A stretch of DNA of 62,420 bases, filler included, from Nemertoderma westbladi (Eukaryota > Animalia > Xenacoelomorpha): the NCBI GenBank assembly GCA_032718475.1. It is 4 parts of 4 records of this genome, joined end to end, with 100 filler letters (N's around TTAATTAATTAA, not from the genome) between each part and the next. Parts side by side here need not be neighbours in the genome. Positions count along the whole stretch, not along the records: positions 49,752 to 58,787 come from JAUCBJ010001827.1; 3 more parts are not named here. One strand, 5' to 3'. A model generated the notes under the pieces. The model was not told the origin of the DNA. It made no database searches and saw nothing but the letters and a program-made list of their open reading frames with translations. The translations under genes and the position numbers were made by a program. Below, in pieces: positions 8,986-61,470 of the stretch (positions within the stretch are counted from its first letter, which is position 1; each line of letters begins with the position of its first letter).

Positions 8986-9357
8986 ACTACTGTACTACTA
9001 CAAGGATCGGTATGCTGCATTGCAGCTGCATTGTTAAGATTGCTGTGCCGGCTTGCGGACAAAATTGCGCCACCACAACTCCCTATCACTCATGACATTT
9101 GCTAGATCATCCGCATCTTCAAGGCCAGTGTCCTTTAAGATGCATCTCAAGAAAGTCATGGGCTGTCCACCATGCTTATTCACTCCAAGAGGCTGCCAAA
9201 GCTCAAGATTATGCACTGGCTGGTCCTCACGGCGAATACAAGCAAGCAAACAGTCGGCCGAAGCTGGAGGCGACCTGAAGGCTCCTTTTTGATAGCTGCT
9301 ACCCGAGGGTAGGGGTGGGCGCTACTCCTATCCCGGCGAAAACAATGTCCTGCAAAT
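8986..9357 (-). mobile_element. RTE LINE 3' fragment (type A, (TAG)n tail) with nested SINE piece
   Basis: Matches 61200-61470; interrupted at ~9241-9345 by a foreign segment flanked by cggcgaa(t/a)acaa. Confidence 0.8.
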
Positions 9358-20100: not shown

Positions 20101-20700
20101 TAGCGACAGGGACACCCGACATGCTGGTGGCGGGGACACACGACAGACTGGTCACAGGGACATTAGACAGGCTGGTCACTGGGACGTCCGACAGACTGGA
20201 CACAGGGACCTCACCAGAAAGCGGTGAACTGAATCGAGGTGAAGGCGGACTACCTAGAGGACTATGGAATGTAAGGGAATCTTCCAATATCGTCTCATCT
20301 GCATCAACTAGAGTGACGTCACCAAAGTTGGATGTACATTCCACGGGTTGAGACAGCGACATTCGTGATACGTCGTCGACATTGTCCGGTAGGGACGACA
20401 TAAGTGGTTGGGAAAACGAGCTTCTGTTCGGATTCCAGGGATTGTCGCATCTTCCTTCCTCCAGTAAGGCGCAGCTGTCACATGGCCGCCCTCGACACTG
20501 ACACCTACACCTCGAGGTCGTGCTGCAACGGCCGCCAGCTCGCATCGAATACTGACATTGGCAGCACCGTTTCGGCATAGCGACCTAGTCGCCCGTTATT
20601 GTATTCGTATCCAGAAATAACTCGCGAATAACCGGCGAAAGCTGCCGACTTCCGAGATAGAATAAGGCGCCAATCAGTCTGGATGTCAAGCCAGTATAGT
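17182..20700 (-). mobile_element. CRE-clade non-LTR retrotransposon, degenerate
   Basis: ORF start at 20578 with Cys-rich motifs and VHWRSNLFLLPPG. RT motifs QGDPLAM and WYADD, zinc knuckle CACG...HAMSC, RHN, REL endonuclease (RLD...DVS), and an A-rich tail at ~17182. Frameshifts in the repeat region, an apparent internal deletion near 18955, and a 22-bp duplication at 17359-17402. The 5' limit is approximate. Confidence 0.85.
19420..20210. repeat. 24/30-bp coding minisatellite within the CRE element
   Basis: gacagggacacccgacagactggt variants; encodes (T/S)SLSGVPV repeats on the minus strand. Confidence 0.9.
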
Positions 20701-23242: not shown

Positions 23243-23342
23243 NNNNNNNNNNNNNNNNNNNNNNNNNNNNNNNNNNNNNNNNNNNNTTAATTAATTAANN
23301 NNNNNNNNNNNNNNNNNNNNNNNNNNNNNNNNNNNNNNNNNN
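23243..23342. other. Assembly gap with TTAATTAATTAA linker
   Basis: 100-bp N-run with a central all-frame stop linker. Confidence 0.95.
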
Positions 23343-25697: not shown

Positions 25698-26171
25698 CTA
25701 TTTATTGAGGTATTTGGCGTGATGATCTACATGATCAGCCATAAAAGACGCAATAAAGAAGTAGCTATGATCATATCCCTCCTGTGAGCGACTGGTAAGA
25801 GCAATTTTATCATTAGATTTACACGAATCAACAAGTTTTTCAGGCAATAACTGACCCTGACTCAGGAAATTATCATCAGACCCCTGATCGCTAAGGATGT
25901 TTATCAGAGGTCCCTCGTACGTCTTGGCCAGCTCTGTCGCGTCGTACTGCTTCCAAGTAGTCGTGTCCGGACCCAGATAACCTCCGAAAGCTTTCTTACC
26001 CCAGTCGCAATTGCTAGGGTTACATATTGGGGAGAAGGCCGAAGCTGATTGGTAGAGAGCCGGGTTGCGTAGAGCCAACACCAGGGCGCCGTGACCCCCC
26101 ATACTATGACCAGTGATTGATTTCCGATCGGGAATTGCGTTAAAGTTGGATTCTATTAGTGAAGGTAATTC
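25698..26171 (-). CDS. ESD: S-formylglutathione hydrolase / esterase D, exon 2
   Basis: Acceptor tttttacag|GAA; GHSMGGHG nucleophile elbow, DQGSDDNF and YDHSYFFI motifs. Confidence 0.95.
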
Positions 26172-26270
26172 CTGTAAAAATAATAAATAATCTGATGGTA
26201 ATATAAAAGTAATTACTAAAACTAAAATAAATTTTCCCACTAAATATACCGCTATTTATACAGATATATA

Positions 26271-26666
26271 CCGGTGTAGCAGAGAATTTCCACCCCCTGG
26301 TTAAAATTCCCTAGTGTATTTTCACCCCCCGGTTAGAATTCACTAGGGTATTTTAAGCGGGGATGAAACTACTCTGGGTGATTTTTTAGTGAAATTTAAA
26401 GCTTAAAGTTAAGCGAACAGTCGACCACAGATACAGTACACGCTGAAGATTTGTTTATAGTACAGTACTGCAGAAGATACAAAAAATACACCGGAAGAGA
26501 ATACACTAGGGAAATTTAACCGGGGATTGATTTTCACAAAGTGAAAATTTATAAATGCTGGGGGTAGTTTATATACATACACCCCGGAGTGAGAATACAC
26601 TAGGTACTGTAATTTTAACCGGGGGAATGATTTTGTATGGGGAGTGAAAATTCTCTGTTACACCGG
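26271..26666. mobile_element. TA-flanked MITE in the ESD intron (copies at 28115-28510 and 29959-30354)
   Basis: TIR CCGGTGTA(G/A)CAGAGAATTT; TA on both sides (Tc1/mariner-like). Confidence 0.8.
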
Positions 26667-27100
26667 TAAGCGTCAGGCAGGCGGTACTTAACTACAGCCT
26701 ACGCCCAACACTGCTATTAATATACAACTTTATAAATTGGATATTTAATTTTCATGCAGGATACAGACATATGTTGGGGCCTCCACCCTAATGAAAACTA
26801 TCATCGGGGTGTCATCAGATCATATAACCCCAAAACTAGAGCCTAATCTAAGAAATTCATCTGAAATTCGCCCTGTGATTTACCTTACTGTACTGATTTA
26901 AAGTAAAGGGTAAAGTCAGAATTAAGCAAAGGGCCTAGCCTACGTCTACATTCAGACATTACCGGTAGGCCTATCTTAGATAATTTTAGATAAACGAAAT
27001 TCAATTAAACGAATTAATCGAATAAGGCAGTAAGGTGTTGGTCTACTATTGTACTGTACAGTCTCCCAAACTCAGAAGGGAAAAAGAGGTCAACACTAAC

Positions 27101-27481
27101 TGAAGTTATATATGAATCCATCTTGTAATTCTCTGCCCATGGGGACTGAGTTGCGTTTAGGTAGAATCCGGCTCCGGAGCCGAAATCGTACGATTCGTCC
27201 TCTCCGGGAATTCCCAGACCTCTAGGACTGGTATCCGGGGCAACCACAATTAACCCATGTCGGGACGCAGCGCTGTGGTAGTTGCCCTTAGTAACCACAT
27301 TTTGCTCTGTGCACGTGAGACCAGACAAGTAGTATAGGACAGGACATTTCTGGGAGACTGCCTTCGGAGGTAGGTAGACACCGAATGTCATCTTACACCC
27401 CAACACCGCGCTGTCGTGGGAAAACGTTTTCTGTAAACCACCAAACGCTTTGTTGGATGTATTCTGAATTATGTTAGCCAT
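27101..27481 (-). CDS. ESD: Esterase D, exon 1 (proximal copy)
   Basis: LSGLTC, PDTSPRG and GAGFY motifs; phase-0 donor TCA|gttagt. The spliced product is 284 aa. Confidence 0.93.
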
Positions 27482-28944
27482 GATCGATGAAGATAATAAT
27501 TATTATATAGTACAGTCTGACAGTTCAGTAGTAGCAGAGTAGGCCTATATACCGGTACAGTACCGTGTAATCTGGTAATACTGCTGACCTGACAGCCGGA
27601 CTACAGTACAGCAGTACTAAATACTGAAATACTGTAGGTACCAGGGACTACTTTTACTGTTAGACATTACTCATTTAGCATAAGTTACAAACTGAAACTA
27701 ATACTATTTTTGCAGACGACACAAACTGTCAGACAAACTGTCAAAGTTACAAACTGACATAAACAAACCTAATTATGGAGTTAAATGACCAATTACTAAC
27801 AGTACTACAATAGAATACATATTTATAAACTGGACTGACTACATGGTTCAATATTAACCGACTCTCTCTCTCAATATAAAAAAAAACACTTTAATTTCGC
27901 ATAACGAACAAACCTCTAAATTTGAACCCCAATGTGGCCTTTATCAGTATATAAAAACAATACACAAATTGAACAACGCAAAGTTTATAAAAATTTTACG
28001 CATCATGTTTAATTCCTGTAAAAATAATAAATAATCTGATGGTAATATAAAAGTAATTACTAAAACTAAAATAAATTTTCCCACTAAATATACCGCTATT
28101 TATACAGATATATACCGGTGTAGCAGAGAATTTCCACCCCCTGGTTAAAATTCCCTAGTGTATTTTCACCCCCCGGTTAGAATTCACTAGGGTATTTTAA
28201 GCGGGGATGAAACTACTCTGGGTGATTTTTTAGTGAAATTTAAAGCTTAAAGTTAAGCGAACAGTCGACCACAGATACAGTACACGCTGAAGATTTGTTT
28301 ATAGTACAGTACTGCAGAAGATACAAAAAATACACCGGAAGAGAATACACTAGGGAAATTTAACCGGGGATTGATTTTCACAAAGTGAAAATTTATAAAT
28401 GCTGGGGGTAGTTTATATACATACACCCCGGAGTGAGAATACACTAGGTACTGTAATTTTAACCGGGGGAATGATTTTGTATGGGGAGTGAAAATTCTCT
28501 GTTACACCGGTAAGCGTCAGGCAGGCGGTACTTAACTACAGCCTACGCCCAACACTGCTATTAATATACAACTTTATAAATTGGATATTTAATTTTCATG
28601 CAGGATACAGACATATGTTGGGGCCTCCACCCTAATGAAAACTATCATCGGGGTGTCATCAGATCATATAACCCCAAAACTAGAGCCTAATCTAAGAAAT
28701 TCATCTGAAATTCGCCCTGTGATTTACCTTACTGTACTGATTTAAAGTAAAGGGTAAAGTCAGAATTAAGCAAAGGGCCTAGCCTACGTCTACATTCAGA
28801 CATTACCGGTAGGCCTATCTTAGATAATTTTAGATAAACGAAATTCAATTAAACGAATTAATCGAATAAGGCAGTAAGGTGTTGGTCTACTATTGTACTG
28901 TACAGTCTCCCAAACTCAGAAGGGAAAAAGAGGTCAACACTAAC

Positions 28945-29325
28945 TGAAGTTATATATGAATCCATCTTGTAATTCTCTGCCCATGGGGACTGAGTTGCGT
29001 TTAGGTAGAATCCGGCTCCGGAGCCGAAATCGTACGATTCGTCCTCTCCGGGAATTCCCAGACCTCTAGGACTGGTATCCGGGGCAACCACAATTAACCC
29101 ATGTCGGGACGCAGCGCTGTGGTAGTTGCCCTTAGTAACCACATTTTGCTCTGTGCACGTGAGACCAGACAAGTAGTATAGGACAGGACATTTCTGGGAG
29201 ACTGCCTTCGGAGGTAGGTAGACACCGAATGTCATCTTACACCCCAACACCGCGCTGTCGTGGGAAAACGTTTTCTGTAAACCACCAAACGCTTTGTTGG
29301 ATGTATTCTGAATTATGTTAGCCAT
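28945..29325 (-). CDS. ESD: Esterase D exon 1 duplicate (copy 2)
   Basis: Identical translation, offset +1844. Confidence 0.75.
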
Positions 29326-30788
29326 GATCGATGAAGATAATAATTATTATATAGTACAGTCTGACAGTTCAGTAGTAGCAGAGTAGGCCTATATACCGGT
29401 ACAGTACCGTGTAATCTGGTAATACTGCTGACCTGACAGCCGGACTACAGTACAGCAGTACTAAATACTGAAATACTGTAGGTACCAGGGACTACTTTTA
29501 CTGTTAGACATTACTCATTTAGCATAAGTTACAAACTGAAACTAATACTATTTTTGCAGACGACACAAACTGTCAGACAAACTGTCAAAGTTACAAACTG
29601 ACATAAACAAACCTAATTATGGAGTTAAATGACCAATTACTAACAGTACTACAATAGAATACATATTTATAAACTGGACTGACTACATGGTTCAATATTA
29701 ACCGACTCTCTCTCTCAATATAAAAAAAAACACTTTAATTTCGCATAACGAACAAACCTCTAAATTTGAACCCCAATGTGGCCTTTATCAGTATATAAAA
29801 ACAATACACAAATTGAACAACGCAAAGTTTATAAAAATTTTACGCATCATGTTTAATTCCTGTAAAAATAATAAATAATCTGATGGTAATATAAAAGTAA
29901 TTACTAAAACTAAAATAAATTTTCCCACTAAATATACCGCTATTTATACAGATATATACCGGTGTAGCAGAGAATTTCCACCCCCTGGTTAAAATTCCCT
30001 AGTGTATTTTCACCCCCCGGTTAGAATTCACTAGGGTATTTTAAGCGGGGATGAAACTACTCTGGGTGATTTTTTAGTGAAATTTAAAGCTTAAAGTTAA
30101 GCGAACAGTCGACCACAGATACAGTACACGCTGAAGATTTGTTTATAGTACAGTACTGCAGAAGATACAAAAAATACACCGGAAGAGAATACACTAGGGA
30201 AATTTAACCGGGGATTGATTTTCACAAAGTGAAAATTTATAAATGCTGGGGGTAGTTTATATACATACACCCCGGAGTGAGAATACACTAGGTACTGTAA
30301 TTTTAACCGGGGGAATGATTTTGTATGGGGAGTGAAAATTCTCTGTTACACCGGTAAGCGTCAGGCAGGCGGTACTTAACTACAGCCTACGCCCAACACT
30401 GCTATTAATATACAACTTTATAAATTGGATATTTAATTTTCATGCAGGATACAGACATATGTTGGGGCCTCCACCCTAATGAAAACTATCATCGGGGTGT
30501 CATCAGATCATATAACCCCAAAACTAGAGCCTAATCTAAGAAATTCATCTGAAATTCGCCCTGTGATTTACCTTACTGTACTGATTTAAAGTAAAGGGTA
30601 AAGTCAGAATTAAGCAAAGGGCCTAGCCTACGTCTACATTCAGACATTACCGGTAGGCCTATCTTAGATAATTTTAGATAAACGAAATTCAATTAAACGA
30701 ATTAATCGAATAAGGCAGTAAGGTGTTGGTCTACTATTGTACTGTACAGTCTCCCAAACTCAGAAGGGAAAAAGAGGTCAACACTAAC

Positions 30789-31169
30789 TGAAGTTATATA
30801 TGAATCCATCTTGTAATTCTCTGCCCATGGGGACTGAGTTGCGTTTAGGTAGAATCCGGCTCCGGAGCCGAAATCGTACGATTCGTCCTCTCCGGGAATT
30901 CCCAGACCTCTAGGACTGGTATCCGGGGCAACCACAATTAACCCATGTCGGGACGCAGCGCTGTGGTAGTTGCCCTTAGTAACCACATTTTGCTCTGTGC
31001 ACGTGAGACCAGACAAGTAGTATAGGACAGGACATTTCTGGGAGACTGCCTTCGGAGGTAGGTAGACCCCGAATGTCATCTTACACCCCAACACCGCGCT
31101 GTCGTGGGAAAACGTTTTCTGTAAACCACCAAACGCTTTGTTGGATGTATTCTGAATTATGTTAGCCAT
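30789..31169 (-). CDS. ESD: Esterase D exon 1 duplicate (copy 3)
   Basis: Identical translation, offset +3688; one synonymous difference seen near 31067. Confidence 0.75.
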
Positions 31170-31863
31170 GATCGATGAAGATAATAATTATTATATAGTA
31201 CAGTCTGACAGTTCAGTAGTAGCAGAGTAGGCCTATATACCGGTACAGTACCGTGTAATCTGGTAATACTGCTGACCTGACAGCCGGACTACAGTACAGC
31301 AGTACTAAATACTGAAATACTGTAGGTACCAGGGACTACTTTTACTGTTAGACATTACTCATTTAGCATAAGTTACAAACTGAAACTAATACTATTTTTG
31401 CAGACGACACAAACTGTCAGACAAACTGTCAAAGTTACAAACTGACATAAACAAACCTAATTATGGAGTTAAATGACCAATTACTAACAGTACTACAATA
31501 GAATACATATCTATAAACTGGACTGACTACATGGTTCAATATTAACCGACGCTCTCTCTCAATATAAAAAAAAACACTTTAATTTCGCATAACGAACAAA
31601 CCTCTAAATTTGAACCCCAATGTGGCCTTTATCAGTATATAAAAACAATACACAAATTGAACAACGCAAAGTTTATAAAAATTTTACGCATCATGTTAGG
31701 CGAACATTTGCGCTCAAAACAACACTATGAAGAAATACCACCACACCAAAAATACTTATATCGTAAATTTATGGTAAGTATAATAATATGATGAATCGAT
31801 GGGGTGTATCCATATAGCGGACTGGTATCCCATCATATACCATATTGTACTTAACTCAATTTT

Positions 31864-32120
31864 AATAAGCATGGTGGACAGCCCATGACTTTCTGGAGAC
31901 GCCTCCTAAAGGACACTGGCCTTGAAAGCGAAAGTTATGGGGGATAGATAGGGAGTTGTGGCCTGCAACTTTGTTGATAAGCCGGCAAAGCATTCTTAAT
32001 GCACGCTGCATGGGGCTTGCCAATTGTGGATTGCATGGTGGTGACAAAATATTTTTGTTAAGCCAGCAGAATCTCAATGTGCAGCTTGAATGCAGAAGGC
32101 CGATTATAGATGGATAGATG
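31864..32120 (+). mobile_element. RTE LINE 3' fragment (type B UTR)
   Basis: Starts aataagcatggtggacagcccatgactttc like the other RTE copies; its UTR matches the reverse complement of 320-430. Confidence 0.8.
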
Positions 32121-34559: not shown

Positions 34560-37500
34560 CTAGGCAAGTTTCATAGCTAACTCATTGCACTTTGACAAAA
34601 GTGTAGACGAATTGTCCTTTAGGAAGTCCATAAGATGGCAACGCATCTCAGAAATATCAGGTTGATTGTCACAGGATGGAACATTAATAAGATCGTTAAA
34701 CAATTTCTTCCACAACGGAATCTTCCACCACCTCTTAAACGATCCCTTAACGCGGTATTCCCCTTTCTTCCCAGTCACCGATAGATACTCCCCGAATAGC
34801 ATTAGATAGACGGTGGAAGCCACACCGTAGGTGTCCGCTTGATAAGTCCACGGACGCCCCTCCAACATCTCCGGACACTCGGAGGAGCTGGTGTTGGATC
34901 GAGTAACGAACGTTGTACCTGGATCGAATAAACTCATGTCGATAGCTCGCCCGAAATCGATGAGTTGGATCGAGGACGGACGATAGGTTGGCTCCCCTAG
35001 ACGCTTCACTGATTCCGATATGCTATACAGAATTAGTAAATTATCCGGTTTAATATCAGCGTGGATAATATCAATTTTATGCAGCTGCTCTACAATTGTG
35101 AGTAGATCGAGAGTAATGAGAGCTACAAGCACCTCCGGTAAGCCATTACGTTTCTCTTTCTGGTATAGATTGACAACGTCGAGGACAGTTCCGGATGCCT
35201 CAACGTTGGAGACAATGCAACTCGACTTCTCGAAGAAGTAAACTGTTCGAAGTTGAATTATACAGGGGGTCAAATCGAGCGAACATTCCTGTAGTCTGCG
35301 ATGGACCTCGAGAATGATGTAGAACTCCCACGGTTTACTCGGGGACTCGAGCTTGAGGGCGACGTCTCTGATGTCGTTGATTATGAAGCCGCGAGCGTCC
35401 TCCCCCGCGGATACGAGACGCGCTCGGTAGATCCTGGCGAATCCGCCGACCCCCAAGGACCCCGTGACGGTGTAGACCTCCCGCCCGCTCCCGGAGCCCA
35501 CCGCGAAGTCGTGCCCGACACGGATTCGCGGACAGGCCGCGTCGGAGACGAACCGTCGCTCCGTGAACCGCACCAACTGGGCGCGCACCATCGCGTGGTC
35601 CGTGTCCAGGTTACGTAGCAACGCGGTGCACACGTCGCGACTGAAGGGGTCCCCCTGGAAGACCACCCCGCGGGTTCGAGTCATCTCCACCGGCAACTCT
35701 AACTCCGAATCGTCGCACATCGCGTGGATCCCGTACGCAGCGGAACGACGCTCCACCAACCCCGAAACCGCGCCACTCGAAACACTAAACGTGGTACCGA
35801 AACCGGCTACTCTTGTAACAGCAGGAAACCCAGCATCATTTACGGGTTCAACATGCGCCACAGCCACCCCCACGACTTCATCAGCGGAATCTTTCTGCAC
35901 TGCATCGCCAGCAGACAAACATCTCGTCCGTAACTGCCCGGTATCACCGCGCCGCGGCTCCTCTGTTTTATTAAACTGCGCGGCGGCCCCATAACTATTG
36001 GCGTTGCTATGACCCGTACTATGGGCGTTACTAGCCCAACCGTAACTATGTGCGTTAGTGGAAGCGTACTTACTGGATCCGCTACTAGCCGAGCTGTAAC
36101 ACTCCTTCGAGAGCTCCATAATAGTACTGAGAACCAGTTCATCGTTCTCTCTCTCCTCTTCCCTCGCCGGTTCCTCGCATTTCTCTTTCCTCAGCAGGTC
36201 GTCGACGTTGGGGCGAATCGAACTCGCGGGAAACGAAGGCAACTCTTGGATACTCGGGTTCATAGGCGTTGATATCATTCGCGCGCGCGCGTCGAAACCC
36301 ACGGACCCATCAATCGGCGCGAAGGTGGTATCCAACCAATCCGAGGAACGAACATTACTGGGAGGTTTATCTGAGGTCTGAATGGGATCCTGGAATATGG
36401 CGAAGGGCACTGAAGGGGGCACCACTGGGTGCTCCAAGATCGATTCATCTTCCTCCTGGTACCGCGGGTTCCACTCGATTGTGAGGGAATTCTCAAATCC
36501 GGCCATAACGTTCCGCAAGGCCGCCGCTGTGTGGATAGTGGGACTGGATATCCCGGACTGCTCCTGGTGGGGACTGGACGCCTCCGCCTGCTCCTGGAGA
36601 TGGGCTTTACTGAGCACCCGGACCAAGGCAACGTCCGAGTCGCGCGGTGTCGGACACTCGTCGGATTCAGTCAATGTCGGACCTTCGTCGGATTGCCGGA
36701 CAACTCCACCAAATGTCGGACACTCAACAAACTCAGATGATTCTTGCGTTGTTTTGGACCTAGAATTATCAGGTGATCGGTATATAGCGAATGCCGGTGC
36801 GAGAACTTTTGAATGTTGGGAATTATTACCGATTTCCGCAATACTGGACGATGGATTGCTGCAATTTATACCAGCGGGTTTATTTTCTGTGTTTATACCA
36901 GCGGGTTTATTTTCCGTGTTTATACCAGTGGGTTTATTTTCCGTGTTTATACCAGCGGGTTTATTTTCCGGGTTTATACCAGCGGGTTTATTTTCCGTGT
37001 TTATACCAGCGAGTTTATTTTCCGTGTTTATACCAGCGGGTTTATTTTCCGTGTTTATACCAGCGGGTTTGTTTTCCGTGTTTATACCAGCGGGTGTGTT
37101 TTCCGTGTTTATACCAGCGGGTTTGTTTTCCGTGTTTATACCAGCGGGTTTATTTTCCGTGTTTATACCAGCGGGTTTATTTTCGAGATTCATTATAGAA
37201 GATCGACTTATTGAGGAGGGTGGTGAGTCAGTTAACGGAGGAGTAGATAATGGCCTGCCGTCATTTACATCGGGTTCATTGCTACAAAGCCCAGTGTTAG
37301 AAGTCACGGGAGGCGGCTTCCGGAACAAATGCGTGTACGTCGGCTCATCGTAGGCCAAGGTTTGTGCGATCCGATCACGCCTACACCGACCTTGGAGGTC
37401 CCCATCCATCCGTCTACGATCAGCTTCGCTCTCTTTCCGAGCGTTCTCTATTGCATTACGTTCCTCCTCAATCTGCCGGAACACTCGCTGTAAATCCTCC

Positions 37501-38834
37501 TGCTGCACCCGCAACTCTTCCTTCTCACGCCGCACCTCTTCCTTCTGCCTGTCGATCTCCGCTTGTTCCCGCTGTCTGTCGACTGTCTCCGCTAGCTGCC
37601 GCTCCACCTGCAGTGAGTGGCATTGCCGCAGAGCCCGCAATTCTTCCAAGCTGAACTCGCGAATTCCACCATAGACAAGAGTCTTGCTGTAATACGGCAC
37701 GTAGGTGATACCATCGCGAACTTCGTTCCAAAACTCCTTGTTGCCGAGACATAGCGGCTTGGTGGAAGGAACTACAGGAACGTCTTGCAACGCCTGTTGA
37801 CAACCAACATTAATACCAGAGTCTGCGGCGGCGCGGTCCTGGGATGACGCTGCCTCAATGTCCCTTTCGTCTAAATGTACATTAAATGCCGGTGGGTGGA
37901 CGCTGGCTTCTACTGGAGCCGAGGGGACTTTAGCGGCAGTCCATTTCCCAGGATCTCTCTTGTTTTCCTTGCCTGCAGGACAATCTTGTCGTTGTAAGGC
38001 AGTGGGTTGATCGGGTCGAGTCGTTCCTCCATCCACCGCGGTACTAAGATGAACAACCGTGTTGGAACTCCCACTATTAGACATCTGTTTACACGATTGT
38101 GCTACAACGCCCGCTGCCACGGATAATGACGCCCTCTCCACAGGCGCCTTATTTTTACTTACCACTTTCAGAGAAGCAAGAGTAGATCTATCTGACGAAG
38201 TTGCCAAGTTATCCAGGAATCCTCCTTTCTGCAGTTGCTCTGCTGTTTGTTGCGCTACATGACGCTGCAACGAGGACACCCTGGAAGCTAAACTGTCAAC
38301 GGGCACCGCCTTCATTTTAATACCTAATTCGAGAACTCCAATCGCTTTTTTAAAATTGTGTTCGTGGAGGTAACAGTCCGACCATAACTCATATAATATG
38401 CTGACTCTTGTCCCGACACCGGCATTGTACAATTCTTTGAGAGTTGTAAACACGGCCACTCGCGAGGGCATCCTTGTAATGTACTTCACCCAAACGTCGA
38501 TGTAGCGTTCATCTTGTTTGTATCTATCATTGTTAGCGAATTGGGCAGTACATTTCTCTAGTAACTCCTGAATGTGACTCTTTGCCCCAGCCGAAGGGTA
38601 ATGCTCTTCCGTCCACTTGATGTAGTCCAGCCAGTTCACCAGCGGGTCCTCGGCCTCTGTAGTGCGAATTAACATCTCGAAATGTTGTCGTTCCTTATCG
38701 GCGGCATCTGTATCATTTGAGGATAGAGACGCTCTTAGTACGCTGATATCACGCCCGTTTGTCAGCGGTTGTACATTCTCCTTACACGTTTCCCAAACGT
38801 AATTAGAATCATCGTCATCACCAGCTTCAGCCAT
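34560..38834 (-). CDS. BUB1: Mitotic checkpoint protein Mad3/Bub1 (MadBub), single exon
   Basis: N-terminal WETCKENVQPL KEN box and TPR, second KEN, GLEBS (EFSLEELRA), CD1 (SSPTIHT), LxxIxE KARD (LSTIME), and kinase motifs GVGGFA, VALK, HADIKPDN, DFG. Confidence 0.95.
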   Translation of the reverse strand: MAEAGDDDDSNYVWETCKENVQPLTNGRDISVLRASLSSNDTDAADKERQHFEMLIRTTEAEDPLVNWLDYIKWTEEHYPSAGAKSHIQELLEKCTAQFANNDRYKQDERYIDVWVKYITRMPSRVAVFTTLKELYNAGVGTRVSILYELWSDCYLHEHNFKKAIGVLELGIKMKAVPVDSLASRVSSLQRHVAQQTAEQLQKGGFLDNLATSSDRSTLASLKVVSKNKAPVERASLSVAAGVVAQSCKQMSNSGSSNTVVHLSTAVDGGTTRPDQPTALQRQDCPAGKENKRDPGKWTAAKVPSAPVEASVHPPAFNVHLDERDIEAASSQDRAAADSGINVGCQQALQDVPVVPSTKPLCLGNKEFWNEVRDGITYVPYYSKTLVYGGIREFSLEELRALRQCHSLQVERQLAETVDRQREQAEIDRQKEEVRREKEELRVQQEDLQRVFRQIEEERNAIENARKESEADRRRMDGDLQGRCRRDRIAQTLAYDEPTYTHLFRKPPPVTSNTGLCSNEPDVNDGRPLSTPPLTDSPPSSISRSSIMNLENKPAGINTENKPAGINTENKPAGINTENTPAGINTENKPAGINTENKPAGINTENKLAGINTENKPAGINPENKPAGINTENKPTGINTENKPAGINTENKPAGINCSNPSSSIAEIGNNSQHSKVLAPAFAIYRSPDNSRSKTTQESSEFVECPTFGGVVRQSDEGPTLTESDECPTPRDSDVALVRVLSKAHLQEQAEASSPHQEQSGISSPTIHTAAALRNVMAGFENSLTIEWNPRYQEEDESILEHPVVPPSVPFAIFQDPIQTSDKPPSNVRSSDWLDTTFAPIDGSVGFDARARMISTPMNPSIQELPSFPASSIRPNVDDLLRKEKCEEPAREEERENDELVLSTIMELSKECYSSASSGSSKYASTNAHSYGWASNAHSTGHSNANSYGAAAQFNKTEEPRRGDTGQLRTRCLSAGDAVQKDSADEVVGVAVAHVEPVNDAGFPAVTRVAGFGTTFSVSSGAVSGLVERRSAAYGIHAMCDDSELELPVEMTRTRGVVFQGDPFSRDVCTALLRNLDTDHAMVRAQLVRFTERRFVSDAACPRIRVGHDFAVGSGSGREVYTVTGSLGVGGFARIYRARLVSAGEDARGFIINDIRDVALKLESPSKPWEFYIILEVHRRLQECSLDLTPCIIQLRTVYFFEKSSCIVSNVEASGTVLDVVNLYQKEKRNGLPEVLVALITLDLLTIVEQLHKIDIIHADIKPDNLLILYSISESVKRLGEPTYRPSSIQLIDFGRAIDMSLFDPGTTFVTRSNTSSSECPEMLEGRPWTYQADTYGVASTVYLMLFGEYLSVTGKKGEYRVKGSFKRWWKIPLWKKLFNDLINVPSCDNQPDISEMRCHLMDFLKDNSSTLLSKCNELAMKLA
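36861..37184 (-). repeat. 12 x 27-bp coding minisatellite (ENKPAGINT)
   Basis: 324 bp, in frame within MadBub. Confidence 0.97.
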
Positions 38835-39292
38835 TTCTGCATTATTATGCTGTTAGATTATTAAACTTCAATTTATAAAATATCAATATCAACAATAAAC
38901 TAATAATATTACTAGGGCAGTAGGGGGCCTAAATTATAAACAAGGCCTATCATAATAGTCGAGGGTGACAGACCGAACGTTTGATTTCAGGAGTTAACTG
39001 ATGAATGCTTCCTTTCTGCCTTTATTTACAGAAAGAAACAGTTTGGTGAGTACAAAATAAAGACACAATGAAATAATCTGAATAATCTTGTAACATGTAT
39101 TTCGTTAATTGTTTTGCAGTTTTGCAGTTTTGGTTCCGTTCCCCCAACACGGGGAATTTTCGGTTTGGGGGACACTGAAACGCTAAAAAACGCATGTGTC
39201 TGAAAAACCTGTCTGATGTCTGGTGGGAAAACACATTTTTTCTCATATTCATTTCTACATTGTCTATAGCTATCAGCCTATATGACAGTATG

Positions 39293-49651: not shown

Positions 49652-49751
49652 NNNNNNNNNNNNNNNNNNNNNNNNNNNNNNNNNNNNNNNNNNNNTTAAT
49701 TAATTAANNNNNNNNNNNNNNNNNNNNNNNNNNNNNNNNNNNNNNNNNNNN
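49652..49751. other. Assembly gap with linker
   Basis: N-run with TTAATTAATTAA. Confidence 0.95.
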
Positions 49752-50170
49752 ACAGCAGTCGAAGAGTAACCAGGGTGAGTTGGCGATCGAATCGATATAA
49801 TAGGATAGTGTGGGGCTAGCCACACGCTGAGAGGTTTGGGTACGCGCGAAGATGAATATGCTATGGTTGGTTGATGCAACGACACGAACCAATACGCGCG
49901 GGAGGTAACAGCTGTAGGAGTAAGGAGGGCATCGTGAGGTTAGGCTACGCGTAGGTGATAGGCAGCGATTGGTTGAAGGCAACAAGGCGAATCAATATTG
50001 ATGGTGACAGATGGTCATTAAACACCTCGATTTAGGGTAGAAATTTGGCATTTTTTAATTGCCTCCGAGATGTGGCCCGTAGCCCAGGCTAGGGAGGAGA
50101 TAGCCGAGGGCTATGCTTCTCCTACTACTATCCTAACCTTTGTTCATCAGTTAGTTTAACTGCTGTTTAA

Positions 50171-51114
50171 CCGGGTCCGACGAATTTGTACAAAAAAGTA
50201 CAAAAAAATACAAAATAGTAGGCCTACAATATAGTACAAAAGAATACAAGGGAGAGTACTGTACACCCCAGTGCAAAGATAGTACAAAATACAGAAATAG
50301 TACAAAAGAATACAAACGAGTGAGAAACGCTTGCAAAACGTGTATCCAAGTGTAGTTCAAATCGTTTAGAGGGGCGCACATGACTGCATGATGTGCAAAA
50401 TAAAACAAAGCATTGTCTGATTGTGGTGCGAGCCATGCATTGAGCGGGGGATGATCTAGCTGTCTAGCAGTCAGAGAGTAGGCCCCTATTACAATACAAT
50501 CATATGAGTTTTAATGCAGCCTTTTGTGTTCAAAAAACACAATAAACGGTCCCAAGCCCGCAAAATTGCAGAGGGATAACTCAATAAAGTTGCAGATAGA
50601 GGCGTACATACAGACATACATATGTCAGTATGTAGCCTACATAATGTACAGTAGCATACAGTCTATCCTTCAGTATATGGGCTACTTTAAGACTATGACC
50701 TAAATTTTGAGTCTCAGTAGGAGTTTTAACTACCCACTGCATAGTATTGCATTATATTGTATTATACGAACTGTAGCCTATTTCTACTTGTGCGCCAGTC
50801 AAAATCTACATGAATCAAAGTTTTGTCGATCATTTCATACTGACCACAGAACCAAGGCCGCTAGTCTGCTAGTGATTGATACTGTAGCGGCGCATATTTC
50901 GGTCCCGTTGCATTTGCTTACAATTAATTATATTTATATACAAGTGTTGTGTAGTGTAGACTACACTAGTATACACGTTTTGTATGCGTTTCTCACTCGT
51001 TTGTACTCTTTTGTACTATTTTTGCACTCATTTGTACTATTTTTGCACTTTATTGTACTCTTTTGTACTATATTGTACTATTTTGTACTTTTTTGTACAG
51101 ATGCGTCGGACCGG
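50171..51114. mobile_element. Foldback MITE with long TIRs of GTACAAAA subrepeats
   Basis: ccgggtccgacgaatttgtacaaaa... is inverted with ...ttttgtacagatgcgtcggaccgg over ~170 bp; inserted in a cctaacctttgttc..cagttagtttaac repeat. Confidence 0.75.
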
Positions 51115-52134
51115 TCCTAACCTTTCCTTTTGTTCCTCAGATAGTTTAACCACTGTCCTAACATTTGTTCTTCCTCAGTTAGTTTAACTGCTGCTGTCCT
51201 AACTTTTGTTCATTTGTTAGTTTAACCGCTGCCCTAACCTTTGTTCCTCAGTTGTTCCTTTTCTCAGTAGTTTAACCATTATTTCATAACCTGCTTGCAT
51301 TAAGAATATGTGCCGCCCAGTGAAAAATGCTTAAAAGAGGCTATGCTACACTGTAATGCAATAATGTCAATGTCCAACCAAACAATGCGTTGAGTGTTAT
51401 CGGACCAGCCTCCGAAAAATGTTAGGCTAACGGCACCTCGCTCTGTCGCATCAGTTTTTGTAGTGGTCTAGTTCCAGGCTACCAGAATCCTTTAGGCCTA
51501 GTGCATGATATAGAATCAGCACATCCTGACATCTGTGCAACTCCTGAACTCACGCGAGCATTTTACAGATGGTGGTCTAATTTATATGGTCATGTACCGC
51601 GAAACCGTGTATTATTTACAGATGTAGGCTAAATTTCGGGTCTTGTACCGTGCCGTGTACAGGGCCCACGTGGTGGGCCTACACAGCTACTGCTATTTTG
51701 CCTAATACAGGTCCCAGAGGTAAATCCTTAACCCATGGGCTGTTACCTCTCTGACTGACAGCGCAACAGCCCTCTCTCTACTGGTCAGCTATTGTAGGCC
51801 TGTACGACTGCGCTGTACTACCAGACCACAGACTACGGCATACGGCTCAGTGTCGGCGTTGTCCAACCGAATGGAGGCATCAGACACTGGACAATGAACC
51901 GGCCGGTTTAGTAAGCTGGTAACAACGAGTTCAATCTCATCTCCTATTGGCTGGCTGATTGGCTCAGATAAATAGTTTATTAGGCTTGTGATTATATGGA
52001 ATACCCTACAGTTACTTGGAAAATGCAATTCTAACTGTATATTAACACAAAATGTAACAATGCCGCATGCCATACTGTATTTAACACTTAACCGAAAGTA
52101 CCATGACTTTGAATTAATACTTTATAACGTGTGC

Positions 52135-52690
52135 CCATCAGCCCATATGAAGAATACCATGTTTTAATAATTTTTCTTTCTATTTTTTCAATTTTTGGAA
52201 TTTTATATGTGAAGAATTATTCCTTATTGAGTGCTTTATAGCGCTTGTTTCTGTCTTATAACCTGTACAGATACTAATTCGTTTATTGTTTTGGTTAGAT
52301 TCAGCATTCAGACATTCTGTAACCTGGGTTTTTAATGAAAACCTGTTATTCTTCACAGGAGCCCTTAAAATTACTAGAATCACTATTTCCTGATTGGTTT
52401 GGCCCATGTGAAGAATACCAGACTTTCTGCCGTTATATTTCACTTTGCAGTTACCCGCATGTGAAAAATACCAGTTTTTTTTTTACAAAAAAACTCAGGT
52501 TACAGAAGCGCTGAATTTAACCAAAACAATAAACGAATTAGTAGGCTCTATACGTACAGGTTATAAGACAGAAATAAGCGCTATAAAACACTTAAAAAAG
52601 ATAAATAAAATAAAATAAAAAATCTTCATAAAATTCCAATAAAAAGTCGACCGAAAAGTGAAATCCTGGTATTCTTCACATGGGCGATTG
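52135..52690. repeat. Palindromic MITE-like element
   Basis: Repeated gcccatgtgaagaatacc in both orientations; 52225-52330 is inverted with 52495-52590. Confidence 0.55.
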
Positions 52691-53429
52691 GTTTTAAACC
52701 GGGTACCTAGCAACTTCATCAGCTGGTTTCAAAATGCCATATTAATTAGCAGCGGCCATTAAAAATACTAGAGCATCTATTTCAGGAGCCCTTAAAACAA
52801 CTCTATTATTAACACTATTAAACACTATTATTAAATTTATAGATGTTATTAGGATGCAGTAAACCCTACAGTACTCAAACACCGGTCTACCGGTACATTC
52901 ATTTGTATAACGCTAATATTGGAGTTGGCTGTCAATTTATTAATACAGAACCTACCTACAGTACAGCCCTACTGCTAGTTCGCTTTCATTGTATTAAAAC
53001 GATGCCTACTTGTCCGTACTTGTATAGCCTACAGTTGTTATATATTGTAGGCCTAGGCCTATTGTGAATTGTAAATGAAAGTGCCTTTTTTTACCTTTCT
53101 CTGCAACTCTCCACTACAACTGCTTCATTGTTGTTTGTATACAAACAACAATGGCGATCTGCTTAGGGAATTGTTTTTGGACCGTCTCCCATTAAATTGA
53201 TTACACAATTTAAATTAATTAATATCCGTGCAGTAGTAGAACTAAACTAAAATTAGTTTTGTGCATCGTGTTAAGGATGGTAGGGAAATATTAGCTTAAT
53301 AGTTTTTTCGGTTTTTTGTAATTACGATCTAATTACACACCTCATCTCATTTCGCTGCGAATTTTGATTGCGTTTTTTGACCTGTGCTAGTGTGCATAGT
53401 AGTGTGCTCTGTGCTAAATTGAAAAACAT

Positions 53430-54830
53430 GTACCTTCCGTATGATCTATTAAAGCTCATCTATCCCATCATAGTAGACATGTACCGAACAACAAGAGTCC
53501 CACAAGAAATGAAAACAAATAAGTTGGTGCCAGTTCCCAAGAAGGGCAACCTAACACTCTATGGTTCTTTTCGGGGAATCTCATTGATCTCGATTGCTGC
53601 AAAGCTATACAATAGGATTCTATTAAATCGCATCAGGGATCCCATTGAGAGACTGCTCCGTGGAAATCAGAATGGGTTCCGTAAAGGTCGTGGGACCATG
53701 GAGCCCATTTTGGCACTTAGAAGGATAATTGAAGAATTATCAAAAAAGAAAGACAGGCATCTGGCTGTTATCTTTGTTGACTTCTTCAAGGCCTTTGATT
53801 CAGTCTCTCGGTCACGTATGTTCAGCATACTTTCATTATATGGGATTCCTGATGAAATTATTGCAGCAATCAGATCAGTATACGATGGTTCGACAACATT
53901 TGTGTCTACTGTTGACGGTGACACAGAACCATTTGAAGTGTTATGGGGCGTCCTCCAAGGAGACACACTTGCACCATTCTTGTTCATTATTGTGGTTGAC
54001 TATGTTCTACGCATGTCCTTAGATCATCATAATGATGATGGGGTGATGATAACTCCACCTACTGGCTCCAGAAGGCGAGGAAATCCTGCCAAGTACCTAA
54101 CTGATCTAGACTTTGCTGATGACTTAGGAGTACTCTCAGAATCATTAGAGGGAGCCCAACAGCTCCTCAGCTCATTAGAACATGCTGCTTCTAGTGTTGG
54201 TCTTTTTATTAACTCCAGAAAGACAAAAATTCTGACAGTTAACTTTGAAAGTCCTCAGCAAGTCTCTGATCGGATGAGCATAAGCTCAAAGGATGGTATG
54301 CTTGAGCATGTGGACGACTTCTGTTACCTGGGATCATGGATCCGGAAGTCAGGTGAGGACCTTCGAATACGTAAGGGAAAGGCATAATCGGAAACTTAAG
54401 GTCCGCTTATTTAGAGCAGCAGTAGTTCCAGTACTCCTCTACGGGAGTCCATGCTGGGCTCTAACTGCTGAGGACACCAAATCTCTGGATGGCACATTCA
54501 CAAGAATGCTACACCGGGTTCAAGTACAATGCACACATCTCCAACCAGACACTATATAACATTGGAGGTGTCTCATTGGTTCCCCCAAGCTTGACACTAG
54601 AACAAAATCGCCTCCGCTTTGCAGGACATTGCTTTCGCCGTGAGGACCAGCCAGTGCATAATCTTGTACTTTGGCAGCCTCATGGAGTGAATAAGCATGG
54701 TGGACAGCCCATGACTTTCTTGAGACGCATCTTAAAGGACACTGGCCTTAAAGATGCGGATGATCTAGCAAATGTCATGGGTGATAGGGAGTTGTGGCGG
54801 TGCAATTTTGTTGACAAGCCGGCACAGCAT
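53430..54830 (+). mobile_element. RTE-clade LINE RT fragment
   Basis: FRGISL, QNGFRKGR, FVDFFKAFDSV, GVLQGDTLAP and LDFADD motifs; 47-bp deletion at 54385 and 8-bp deletion near 54522 relative to the 60.7-61.5 kb copy. Confidence 0.92.
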
Positions 54831-55361
54831 GGATCACCTTGTTATGCCGTGTTATAGTACTGCACAGTATGTCAATTAGTCAATTAGTGTCATTCCCAGT
54901 CATGCCTAGTTATGGAGTGCTGTAACGGATGTGTCGTTCACGTTGTATTCCAGCCCTATTCCCAAGACCATGCTGTGCAATGCTATTTGTGCTACTCCAT
55001 CCGTTTAATTATTCAATTTCGATTGCTCATATTACAACAAGACAACAAAAAGATCCATCACACCACCCGACCCCACCCCCCCCCCCCCCCCCCCCCCTGC
55101 CCTCCCCCTTCATAATCAACAATCATGTCACATACGTGTTAGTTCCGGTCACCAGTTGTGTTTCATACTTTTTATTTTCAAATTTGTTGACTTTCAAATT
55201 AGTCACAATTTAATTGAGTGTAGTGTATCGTAAGTAAGACTTAATAGATTTTATATAATTCCAACTTTATTCAAATTTGCTTATTTTATAGGCGGCATTT
55301 GTTATTTGCAAATTGCTAATGTTTAAATTTTTCTATGAACTAGTCTCATTGTCATAGCAAG

Positions 55362-56061
55362 ATGGCTTCGGCTTATGATTCAGATTCAGACGCTTGTGAA
55401 GATATGTCGGTATATCGTTGGCAAGCGCAACCTCAACGCCGTCAGCGTATACAACATCATCCAGAAGAAGATAACATTGTCGATAGACGTGATTTCCTTT
55501 CCCTCAATGACGAGTCCCAAACTATTGATGTTTGTAAACGAGTCCATATCCCAGTAGAGAAATACCCAGGATACAATTTTGTTGGCAATTTTGTTGACCC
55601 ATGACTTTCTTGAGACGCATCTTAAAGGACACTGGCCTTGAAGATGCGGATGATCTAGCAAATGTCATGGGTGATAGGGAGTTGTGGCGGTGCGATTTTG
55701 TCGATAAGCCGGCACAGCATTCTTAAAAATGCAGCTGCAATGCAGCATGCCGATCCTAGTAGTAGTAGTTGTTGGCAAGATCCTCGGCTCCAAAGGCAAT
55801 ACTCTGAGGGAGTTGAGCAAAGAGACCCATTGCGGATTGTATCTACTGGGCCAAGGGACTGTCCGAGATAAACAGGAGGAGTCGCGTAGAAGGCTGTCAG
55901 GGGACCTGTGCTTCGACCATCTCAACTACCCCCTACATATACTCGTGAAAACAACCGCCAGACCAACTGAAGCTTACGCCAATTTATCTGCAGCGTTAAT
56001 AGAATTGTCCAAATTGCTGGTACCGGGTAATAATGATACGGATACAGCACATCAACTTCCA
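55362..56061 (+). pseudogene. STAR-family KH-domain exon interrupted by an RTE insertion
   Basis: Removing 55589-55778 gives KRVHIPVEKYPGYNFVGKILGSKGNTLRELSKETHCGLYLLGQGTVRDK...HLNYPLHILV (Sam68/Quaking-type KH). It ends at a phase-0 donor CCA|gtaagt. Confidence 0.85.
55589..55778 (+). mobile_element. 5'-truncated RTE insertion, 190 bp including one TSD copy
   Basis: Matches 61290-61460; (TAG)n tail; TSD TTGTTGGCAA at 55579-55588 and 55769-55778. Confidence 0.92.
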
Positions 56062-56425
56062 GTAAGTATAAATATATATTCATAATGCACTTTTTCAGCG
56101 TTATGACCCTTGACCCGAGTGTATTTATGTACCGAGCGAGCTAAGCGAGGGAGGTTTAAATAGATCTAAAATAAATCTAAATGCACTTTGTTTTTGGAAC
56201 ACCGATATGATGACATATTGCAACGTTATTACATTATAATAATTTTATGAAAAGGGAATTATTCACTATTCAGCCTTAAAAATAAAATAAAATCGGTACG
56301 TACATAAACACAATCGGGGTCATAAGAAGGAAATATGTGCTAATATTTAATTCAGTGATGCAATAGCGCATCTGTAACATTTGCATTAAATTCAAATATG
56401 TAATGCAGTTATTTTATTCATTCAG

Positions 56426-58787
56426 AAAATTAATAGATCCCAGAAGAAATACGATGGTGGACCTCCTGGAAATATTACAAAGGAGCGCAATTTCACTAAT
56501 AAGCTCATCAAACAAGGAGCCATGTACATGGGAAATAGGGATGAGTTTGGATTTGTTTTGCGAACGCTACCCGAAATGAAAGTTTATGTATTTTACTTTA
56601 GTTGGGAACGAGTGGACATAGAATTTGAACTATGGTCATTGTTTGAAAACCTAATTGAATATCAGAATTCCGATTGCACTAATTCTGTTAAATGCATCTT
56701 GTTTGATAATGAGTCATGCAATATTAATCATTCAGATTGTGGTATTATTCAGCTTTATGTGAATGGCAAATTGGTTTGCGCTGATGTACTAAAAGATATT
56801 TGTCAGTTTGATAATATGTGCACAGCGTTTGCTGTTGAATATGATAATTTCAAGAAAAAACCGACCAAAAAGGTATATTTCGAAGCGCCTTGTCCACTGA
56901 GAGGGCAACAATGTTCGGGCAAATGTATATCTTGGCTTTGTGCCAAATGTATGTGTCAACTGGAATATGGGTTTGACAATTATTTGTACTGCAGTTGTGG
57001 AGGTGGGAAAGTCGAACATTTCAGCTTTAGATGTAGCTTATCTACACATGGTCGAAAATATTGTTTTTTCGACAAGAAGGATATTCCTGCCATTGTAGAC
57101 AACCTGAAGTCTTTTAATGGTCTTACGATTTTAATCCTAGGGGAAACAGGTGTTGGAAAGTCTACCTTTATTAATGGATTTGCAAACTACCTGGAATATG
57201 ATACTCTTGGAGAAGCTAAGCGAGGTGATAATCTCCTAAGCCCCATTAAATCGAGTTTTACCATAACAGATGACAACTTTGAACAGATAACAATAAATAC
57301 AGGAAGTGATGATAATGAGAATCACGTTGTTGGTCAGTCTGCCACTCAAGGAACCAAAGCCCATGTCTTCAATTACAAAGGATCTACTAACGTTCGTTTA
57401 ATTGACACTCCGGGTATCGGTGATACACGAGGCATTGAGCAGGATAAAGAAAACTTCCAGAACATTCTGGCCTATATTTCATATTTTGAAGAAATTCATG
57501 GAATTTGCATTCTGCTTAAACCTAACAGTTCTCGAATAACAACAATGTTTGAGTTCTGCATTAAAGAGCTTCTAACACATCTTCACAAGGATGCTGCTAA
57601 AAATATATTTTTTGGTTTCACAAACGCTCGAAGCACAAACTACAGACCTGGCGATACGTTTCCTGCCCTTAAGCAACTTCTTGATGAAAATCAGCAAGTT
57701 CAAATCAATCTGTTCAAGGAAAATGTGTTTTGTGTTGATAATGAATCTTTCAGGTATTTGGCAGCCATTAGAAATGGCATTAAATTTAACGAGGCAGATG
57801 AGAAGAATTATGAAGCAAGTTGGGATAGATCCAGGACTGAAACAAACCGTATGATGAGTTACATATCTGATCTAAAATCTCATAAGGTTAAGGATACTCT
57901 TACTATTAATGATGTCAGGAGACGGATTCTAGACCTAACCAAACCACTTGCTGAGATCGCGAAGGTAATTGATACGACTATTAGCAACCTTGAAGATCAG
58001 AAAATTGAAATAGCAAATTCTGAGCAATCGGCTTCTGTGATTTTATCGAAAATTAACATACTAGTTCCAACTCTGGAACGAAAAAACTTATCTTACCCAA
58101 GAACAGTGTGTACCAGTTTATCGTGTTCAGAAGTCCACAATATCAAAGGTCAGGAATTAAAAAAGTTTACAGTTCACTGCCATAAGCACTGTCAACTAAC
58201 TGGAGTTCAAGCTGACACAATTAACAACCCAGATCTGAAGGGCTGTGCGGCTATGAGAGCCAGCGGGGGCCAGACGTGTGAGGTGTGTCAGTGCAATTGG
58301 AATGTCCATATGCATGTTACTTATGAAATGGAGTCAGTCATGGCTGGAGCTGAAGATCTTAGTGCAAAATTGAGTTACCAGGGAATCACTCATCGTATTG
58401 CGCTGAAAGAAAGGGCTGTTGCTGATTACGAACGTGTTATTGATGAGCTAGAACACGAGAAAGAGCAGATAATTAAAGCATCCGTACAGTTTGGGATCTT
58501 TGTGAAGATAAATTGTGTTATTCCGTATAACGATGCTATGAGTGCATACCTCAGTCTTATGATAAAGGTAGAGAGAGAAAAGGCTAATCAGAGTCAAGAT
58601 TTTTCAGCTGTTGACAAACTCACAATACTTAAGCAAAGATATGAAAATGAAGTTGAACTTATCAAGAAAGCAACATCTAACGATTATTGTATATTTCCAG
58701 ATTTTTCTTTAGAAGATCAGGATTTAGTATTGAAGAAGCTTTTTAAACTGAAGCACTTTGGTAGAAATATGGAAAATATATTAGTGC
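56426..58787 (+). CDS. Cys-rich domain + AIG1/septin-like P-loop GTPase + Cys/His domain + coiled coil; 3' end lost in gap
   Basis: Acceptor ttcattcag| at 56425, open in phase 0 through the ATG at 56522; G1 GETGVGKS, G3 DTPG, G4-like FTNAR. Confidence 0.85.
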
Positions 58788-58887
58788 NNNNNNNNNNNNN
58801 NNNNNNNNNNNNNNNNNNNNNNNNNNNNNNNTTAATTAATTAANNNNNNNNNNNNNNNNNNNNNNNNNNNNNNNNNNNNNNNNNNNN
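58788..58887. other. Assembly gap with linker
   Basis: N-run with TTAATTAATTAA; supplies the artificial stop of the GTPase ORF. Confidence 0.95.
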
Positions 58888-60365: not shown

Positions 60366-60616
60366 TTAGCAGATTGAGACTGATCGTGCAACCGCTGTTA
60401 TAGAGTTTCCTGCTGGTTGACCACTAATTTAGCTGAAAATGGTTATGGAATAGCCCAATTTGACCACAAATACGCATTCACGCATAAATGATACATAAAA
60501 TTAGCCTGGATGTAACGACGTTTCGCGTCCTTGTGCTTGGGGCAGTCTGCATCACGTAGGTGCGCATCAAAAAGTAGCATAATAGTCGAGACCCAACATG
60601 TAGAGTGACAGAATGG

Positions 60617-61470
60617 AGGGAGCCCAACGGCTCCTCAGCTCATTAGAACATGAGTCATGAGAAAGGTTCGACATAGAAAGTCCACAAAGTTAACATAGAA
60701 CATGAGAACAACGCTTCTAGTGTTGTTCTTTTTATTAACTCCAGAAAGACCAAAATGTTGACAGTTAACTTTGAAAGTCCTCAGCAAGTCTCTGATCGGA
60801 TGAGCATAAGCTCAAAAGATGGTATGATTGAGCTTGTGGATGACTTCTGTTACCTGGGATCATGGATCTGGAAGTCAGGTGAGGACCTTCGAATACGTAA
60901 GGGAAAGGCATGGGCAGCCTTGAATAGGCTTTCCAGGATTTGGAAGTCACCGAGAATTAATCGGAAACTTAAGGTCCGATTATTTAGAGCAGCAGTAGTT
61001 CCAGTACTCCTCTATGGGAGTCCTTGCTGGGCTCTAACTGCTGAGGACACCAAATCTCTGGATGGCACATTCACAAGAATGCTACACCGGGTTCATTGTG
61101 TCAAGTACAATGCACACATCTCCAACCAGACACTATATAACATTGGAGGTGTCTCATTGGTTCCCCCAAGCTTGACACTAGAACAAAATCGCCTCCGCTT
61201 TGCAGGACATTGCTTTCGCCGTGAGGACCAGCCAGTGCATAATCTTGTACTTTGGCAGCCTCATGGAGTGAATAAGCATGGTGGACAGCCCATGACTTTC
61301 TTGAGACGCATCTTAAAGGACACTGGCCTTGAAGATGCGGATTATCTAGCAAATGTCATGGGTGATAGGGAGTTGTGGCGGTGCAATTTTGTCGATAAGC
61401 CGGCACAGCATTCTTAAAAATGCAGCTGCAATGCAGCATGCCGATCCTAGTAGTAGTAGTAGTAGTACTG
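60617..61470 (+). mobile_element. RTE LINE 3' fragment (type A) with (TAG)n tail
   Basis: Near-identical to 54150-54830; YLGS, KVRLFRAAVVPVLLYG and RLRFAGH motifs. Confidence 0.92.

Follow-up and report, generated by a model that had tools for sequence, protein, structure and literature searches.

The window, a 62,420-nucleotide stretch of animal-type DNA from Nemertoderma westbladi, consists of four pieces with N linkers between them. One piece (49752-58787) carries on its plus strand a STAR-type KH exon, interrupted by a retroposon, and downstream of it a long GTPase exon. The features of this locus are as follows.

55130-55229, plus strand: candidate non-coding first exon, 5' end undefined, suggested by the GTAAGT at 55230; no ATG ahead of this donor.
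55230-55357, plus strand: candidate 5'UTR intron, suggested by 25% GC, a consensus donor and pyrimidine-rich AG acceptors at 55291, 55357 or 55361.
55362-55588, plus strand: 5' piece of the KH exon, with an ATG in strong context, an acidic leader, a Sam68-type linker half and the first KH strand; no QUA1.
55579-55588, plus strand: left target-site duplication, 10 bp, TTGTTGGCAA.
55589-55778, plus strand: RTE retroposon insert, 190 bp, 5'-truncated and including the right duplication, recognised by its similarity to other copies in the window.
55769-55778, plus strand: right target-site duplication, 10 bp, a perfect copy of TTGTTGGCAA, counted inside the insert.
55779-56061, plus strand: 3' piece of the KH exon, with the GSKG loop, variable loop, helix 3 and first QUA2 residues, ending at a donor.
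56062-56425, plus strand: predicted phase-0 intron, 364 bp, donor CCA/GTAAGT, acceptor TTCATTCAG.
56426-56473, plus strand: disordered linker of 16 residues at the start of the GTPase exon (pLDDT below 50 for residues 1-16).
56474-56809, plus strand: helix and thioredoxin-fold domain (DUF7656; PF24676, 33.7 bits, cut-off 27).
56891-57049, plus strand: Cys/His cluster, predicted to bind zinc, intact, 7 of its Cys and 1 His being shared by at least 96% of homologs.
57110-57895, plus strand: GIMAP/Toc34/septin-like G domain, by structural and sequence match.
57887-58786, plus strand: long helical stalk, from the secondary structure of the model, truncated by the gap at 58788.
58109-58315, plus strand: second Cys/His cluster inserted in the stalk, with conserved Cys/His, intact.

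The open frame after the acceptor spans 787 codons (755 if counted from 56522, its first in-frame ATG) and runs into the N gap at 58788 without a stop. The stop-free entry into this frame agrees with the earlier note, which had given the ORF as 773 codons; that length does not hold, and the frame ends at the gap. Homologs extend a median of 53 residues beyond the gap-cut end (quartiles 41-76, among the homologs listed), and a C-terminal tail was not found in the rest of the window past the gap. The three N gaps (23243-23342, 49652-49751 and 58788-58887) each comprise 100 bases, composed of N44, a 12-base AT linker and N44. They join separate pieces, so that neighbourhood across them is not proven.

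A Pfam scan and structure prediction, both proposed in the earlier note, placed the KH above the PF22675 cut-off and DUF7656 above the PF24676 cut-off, and returned a confident fold for the GTPase exon (pLDDT 87.6, pTM 0.74). The model of DUF7656 matches thioredoxins with Z up to 9.9 and stonustoxin (alpha/beta, PDB 4WVM) with Z 8.5, where it aligns to residues 366-502 of 4wvm_B. A scan for CxxC found none in this thioredoxin fold. Unlike stonustoxin, the protein encoded here has no part of the pore-forming domain; stonustoxin itself is not known to have a GTPase and carries a C-terminal PRYSPRY.

The G domain retains intact G1 (57140), G3 (DTPG, 57404) and G4 (TNAR, 57620) motifs. Its best fold matches are Toc33 (Z 16.1), GIMAP4 (Z 15.1) and septin-7 (Z 12.0), with an rmsd of about 3 A for those at Z 15-16, and Foldseek aligned it to GIMAP7 with E=2.5e-8. 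An arginine after strand 4 (Arg370), a feature shared with these GTPases, is conserved in 100 of 108 homologs and occupies what we take to be the site of the dimer arginine finger of GIMAP/Toc34/septin GTPases. Unlike GIMAP, Toc33/34 and septin proteins, to which it is 14-19% identical, the protein has additional thioredoxin and zinc modules. The domain scored 18.8 bits with AIG1 (PF04548; Pfam cut-off 27) and 22.6 bits with septin (PF00735; cut-off 26.2). The description of an AIG1/septin-like GTPase is thus right as to a GIMAP/Toc34-like fold; membership of either Pfam family is not supported, and the protein belongs instead to the family described below. With the GTPase as a single query, a sequence search of the PDB returned no matches, and the Atlas returned only G-domain/DUF8206 clusters.

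Homologs of the GTPase number 1,635, and we examined the architecture of the best 120, which come from fungi, rotifers, cnidarians, a tardigrade, a centipede, a sea urchin and a cyanobacterium, among others. The usual order is MACPF_SNTX (PF24674), a helical part, DUF7656 (PF24676), the G domain and DUF8206 (PF26633), the last found on nearly all of these 120. The MACPF region is matched in 86 of them, and the family profile matches stonustoxin with E=3e-45 over the first 410-415 residues. In the other 34, some of which are fragments, the MACPF match is absent, indicating that heads vary in the family; several of the 34 start near the thioredoxin domain. The cyanobacterial relatives consist of GTPase and stalk only, behind a small helical head. 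This family, spread widely among eukaryotes, unites a MACPF of stonustoxin type with a thioredoxin fold, predicted zinc clusters, a GTPase resembling GIMAP/Toc34 and a stalk.

The N. westbladi exon has DUF7656, the Cys/His clusters, the G1/G3/G4 motifs and the stalk in the family order. It retains 130 of 139 highly conserved family columns and is 35-55% identical to the longer homologs over most of its length, with the same thioredoxin fold, paired Cys/His clusters, G motifs and stalk. Unlike the 86 homologs with a MACPF match, it lacks their head of about 370 residues (MACPF plus helical part), and a search of six frames and with the profile found no MACPF sequence in the window. The GTPase is a head-less member of the family, with a KH exon where the pore-forming and helical head normally sits. 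A literature search over mainly open-access papers listed nothing on this family, on DUF7656 or on a GTPase in proteins of stonustoxin type. AIG-type effectors of bacterial conflict systems are mentioned by Kaur et al. 2020 (PMC7159879), in passages that do not name the MACPF_SNTX-DUF7656-G-DUF8206 family.

The KH exon is most similar to the KHDRBS branch of STAR proteins (T-STAR E=9e-21, Sam68 1e-18, GLD-1 5e-14, QKI 5e-13, SF1 2e-3). The T-STAR value is that of the 3' piece, which also scores 32.2 bits with PF22675 (cut-off 30), and the 5' piece alone matches the STAR profile with E=1e-5. This profile, built from the best 150 of 749 KH matches, spans residues 28-168 of the exon with E=2e-49 and one extra residue. 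The match starts at profile position 43 of 283 and no other segment of the window matches, so QUA1 is absent. QUA2 is incomplete: the exon ends within it, and the window holds no continuation or later STAR exon. The intact GxxG loop reported by the earlier note is present as GSKG. Its STAR-type KH is indeed STAR, and specifically KHDRBS/Sam68-like, without QUA1 and without most of QUA2.

Like KHDRBS/Sam68/T-STAR proteins (PDB 5ELR, 5EMO), the exon encodes a GxxG KH with a long variable loop and the second half of the QUA1-KH linker. It shares with them the RNA contacts N71, K75 and R104 and the dimer-helix residues Y141 and L148; G74, G78 and G81 of T-STAR are retained as well. P79, I97 (a backbone contact), D125, A138, M144, G145 and D158 are changed, and the near-invariant residues lost include P79 (to S), D158 (to G), D125 (to Y) and a variable-loop S (to T). 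Unlike these proteins, the product would have no STAR tail, and a GTPase exon comes next. T-STAR and Sam68 need only the KH, and not QUA2, to bind (A/U)AA RNA, and their dimer is formed by helix 3 and the second half of the linker (PMC4735526). The N. westbladi exon retains just this RNA-binding and dimer module (KH, second linker half and helix 3). By analogy, and with key residues partly retained, its KH is predicted to bind (A/U)AA RNA and to dimerise.

Among the best 150 of 749 matches, none exceeds 49% identity to the KH. In a tree of the query and 70 of these 150, the KH sits on a terminal branch of 1.58 and falls in no supported group. It agrees with the STAR matches in 26 of 34 columns that are at least 90% conserved, versus 14 of 36 columns conserved at 70-90% (Fisher p=0.002). 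Its score of 0.76 for conserved columns is barely above the lowest among the STAR matches (0.74; median 0.97); this, together with the lost near-invariant residues, fits relaxed selection. When neutral substitution was simulated, 82 of 3,000 copies were still stop-free at 49% identity and 404 of 3,000 at 70%. The column bias and the rarity of stop-free survival indicate that the KH diverged under coding constraint, though relaxed; this signal may instead be the legacy of a divergent parent gene. The KH piece as an Atlas query returned KH clusters only, under 0.8.

The KH exon is split by the 190-bp insert, and the perfect 10-bp duplications confirm the reading of a retroposon bounded by target-site duplications. 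The inserted sequence comes from the 3' end of an RTE element and is young, as 175 nt of it align to the copy at 61289-61463 with 98.3% identity; identity to the copy at 54708-54830 is 96.7%. It shows the 5' truncation, short tandem 3' tail (a TAG repeat), target-site duplication and RT-bearing relatives (53368-54387 in the Pfam scan) of an RTE non-LTR retroposon. RTE as the clade is the earlier note's label, which is probably correct, since it agrees with the tails of RTE elements. At its 5' junction the insert starts with 9 bases (55589-55597) that match a stretch inside the element's 3' region and not what lies upstream of the truncation point, suggestive of a switch there by microhomology. 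The window contains at least six copies of the retroposon family (439-845, 8985-9236, 31864-32024, 53368-54830, 55589-55778 and 60616-61467). They are 75-98% identical to the insert, and the family has therefore been active both over a long time and recently.

Excision of the insert in silico restores a stop-free frame of 510 nt from ATG 55362 to 56061, as had been claimed. Left unstressed was that the assembled sequence encounters a stop at codon 82, after 81 codons. No splice pair with a donor of at least 4 of 6 consensus bases takes out the insert without loss of KH sequence. The early stop and the lack of a clean splice pair predict a null allele, and the copy on this haplotype was likely knocked out recently by the young RTE insert.

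The consensus donor and the same-phase acceptor named in the earlier note are both present. The last exon base is 56061, the intron starts at 56062 in phase 0, and the strong acceptor TTCATTCAG ends at 56425 in phase with the donor. Joined without the insert, the KH and GTPase frames give 957 codons without a stop. GTAAGT occurs 30 times in the window on both strands, and 54900-56600 contains only two GT[AG]AG sites, 55230 and 56062, one on either side of the KH exon. The chance of the donor is 0.014 (in the 57 nt from the KH end to the next stop), that of a strong acceptor 0.044 (in the 84-nt lead-in) and that of the phase 1/3. The joint chance, about 2e-4, is post hoc and presumes that the signals were not inherited from parent genes. 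The predicted intron (56062-56425) contains no MACPF or STAR homology; a 9-bp inverted pair within it (56101 and 56317) may bound a small mobile element.

STAR homology reaches the donor and ends there. Among 76 motif-bearing STAR matches, the next residue after the donor position is E in 73, and V occupies the donor position in just one. GTPase-family homology begins about 18 residues past the acceptor. The junction is thus a domain border on both sides, on the GTPase side according to the model, and lies in the disordered linker, 16 residues long, that leads to the first folded helix. Ahead of the first in-frame GTPase ATG (56522) stands another ATG (56454), out of frame and in strong context, which argues against a stand-alone GTPase start. 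GC3 differs between the KH and GTPase exons (0.42 vs 0.33); this difference indicates separate origins of the two exons and that the fusion may be recent. Judged from these sequence signals, the KH and GTPase exons are probably spliced together.

We searched for the same architecture elsewhere. A KH was present in none of the best 120 of 1,635 GTPase homologs and at none of six metagenome loci, and a GTPase in none of the best 150 of 749 KH matches, the longest of which has 595 aa. A close fusion ortholog should rank at the top of such lists. A KH word search of proteins of 171-2000 aa yielded no match among 158 candidates; this search is weak, as it missed canonical STAR proteins too. Searches with the N-terminal region in short proteins (30 candidates) and with the KH in viral contigs (40 candidates) likewise returned no match. 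The KH-GTPase homologs that the earlier note proposed as a check were therefore not encountered in these lists and loci. Its statement that STAR proteins are not normally fused to GTPases, with no described example, agrees with the 120 GTPase and 150 KH matches listed, and the literature search, within the same scope as above, produced no described KH-GTPase fusion. The domain order of STAR KH followed by a GIMAP-like GTPase is absent from the homolog lists and the literature searched.

With its signals, phase, open frames and domain borders, the locus is best read as a chimeric KH-GTPase gene, of which the assembled allele is predicted to be null. Both frames are free of stops and frameshifts except for the one insert. 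From the sequence we consider it rather likely that the two exons formed one lineage-restricted, exon-shuffled gene whose fusion protein was selected. A recent rearrangement could instead have joined the exons, perhaps with splicing, into a protein that was never selected, and the insert would then have been tolerated because the protein had no selected role. We regard this as not very likely. It would fit the lack of a fusion ortholog among the 120 GTPase and 150 KH matches listed or at the six loci, the young insert within the KH and the differing GC3 of the exons, and both the splice signals and the KH divergence could come from the parent genes. Against it, the frames are intact save for one insert that shares 98% identity with another copy, the exons meet at a domain border, and no closer KH parent is found among the best 150 of 749 matches.

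It seems unlikely that the two are independent neighbours. In that case the KH would be a decayed copy in its own right, and the GTPase would either use a start of its own or be spliced, past the KH, from the 55230 donor or a different upstream exon. The intactness of the GTPase versus the broken KH of the assembly would suit such an arrangement, as would the 34 of 120 homologs without a MACPF match, several of which start near the thioredoxin domain. It is opposed by the strong-context out-of-frame ATG at 56454 ahead of the first in-frame ATG, by the absence of a MACPF exon from the window and by the few simulated copies (82 of 3,000) left stop-free by neutral decay to 49% identity. Moreover, the KH copy breaks off at its 3' end, at precisely a consensus donor, whereas truncation of processed pseudogenes is mostly 5'. 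A mis-join of two loci within the 364-bp spacer is very unlikely. The 9-kb piece is flanked by N gaps and the inverted pair gives the spacer a repeat-like element suggestive of a mobile element, but within the window the spacer is single-copy, and a mis-join is not expected to keep phase and domain borders.

For the favoured selected fusion, we propose that a KHDRBS duplicate became positioned 5' of a MACPF-thioredoxin-zinc-GTPase family member that had lost its own 5' part, and that an intron joined the two. Since the KH region is intron-free, the duplicate was possibly a retrocopy. An insert-free allele would encode a protein of about 1,000 residues. Its KH may bind short A/U-rich single-stranded RNA and dimerise via helix 3, as in T-STAR. 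The KH dimer could then place two G domains side by side, so that they pair GTP-dependently in the manner of GIMAP/Toc34, with the stalk as a scaffold. Both dimerisation steps are drawn from analogy with T-STAR and with GIMAP/Toc34. The product would be an RNA-targeted, non-lytic oligomerising GTPase.

Such a product most plausibly has a role in cell-autonomous defence, as its relatives have a perforin-like head and GIMAPs are linked to defence; a role as an immune sensor is speculative. We consider it very unlikely, if worth stating, that the insert-free allele encodes the RNA-sensing subunit of a so far undescribed innate immune system, in which a KH of Sam68 origin, grafted onto the GTPase-stalk core, would detect A/U-rich foreign RNA, and the protein would pair GTP-dependently with MACPF-bearing paralogs and so license a perforin-like pore. 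This design, with a GIMAP-like GTPase as its base, would resemble the integrated sensors of plant NLR pairs.

The locus exposes a wide eukaryotic family in which a stonustoxin-like pore domain is combined with a septin/GIMAP-like GTPase and heads are swapped. If expressed, the insert-free allele would be a natural experiment on the GTPase-stalk core without its pore, and on the steering of a GTPase by RNA. If the insert is polymorphic, it provides a ready-made knockout allele. Their value is limited by the single locus and its broken allele.

The other pieces of the window encode further genes. BUB1 (34560-38852, minus strand) is a single open frame of 1,430 codons with an in-frame 27-bp tandem repeat of about 12 copies (36865-37184). 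Three tandem 1,844-bp copies that are 99.8-99.9% identical (26166-31697, minus strand) each carry the first coding exon of an esterase D-like gene, so named from reading the translation, and a later exon of this gene (25698-26255) is single-copy. Two intron-free MFS transporter genes form an inverted pair that is 90% identical (2218-3605, minus strand, and 6502-7887, plus strand), and the plus-strand copy appears as a frame of 280 codons, against 421 in the other. On the minus strand, 17373-20584 is occupied by retroelement-like frames that contain an RT-type YADD motif, go unrecognised by Pfam and are preceded by a 24-bp tandem repeat.
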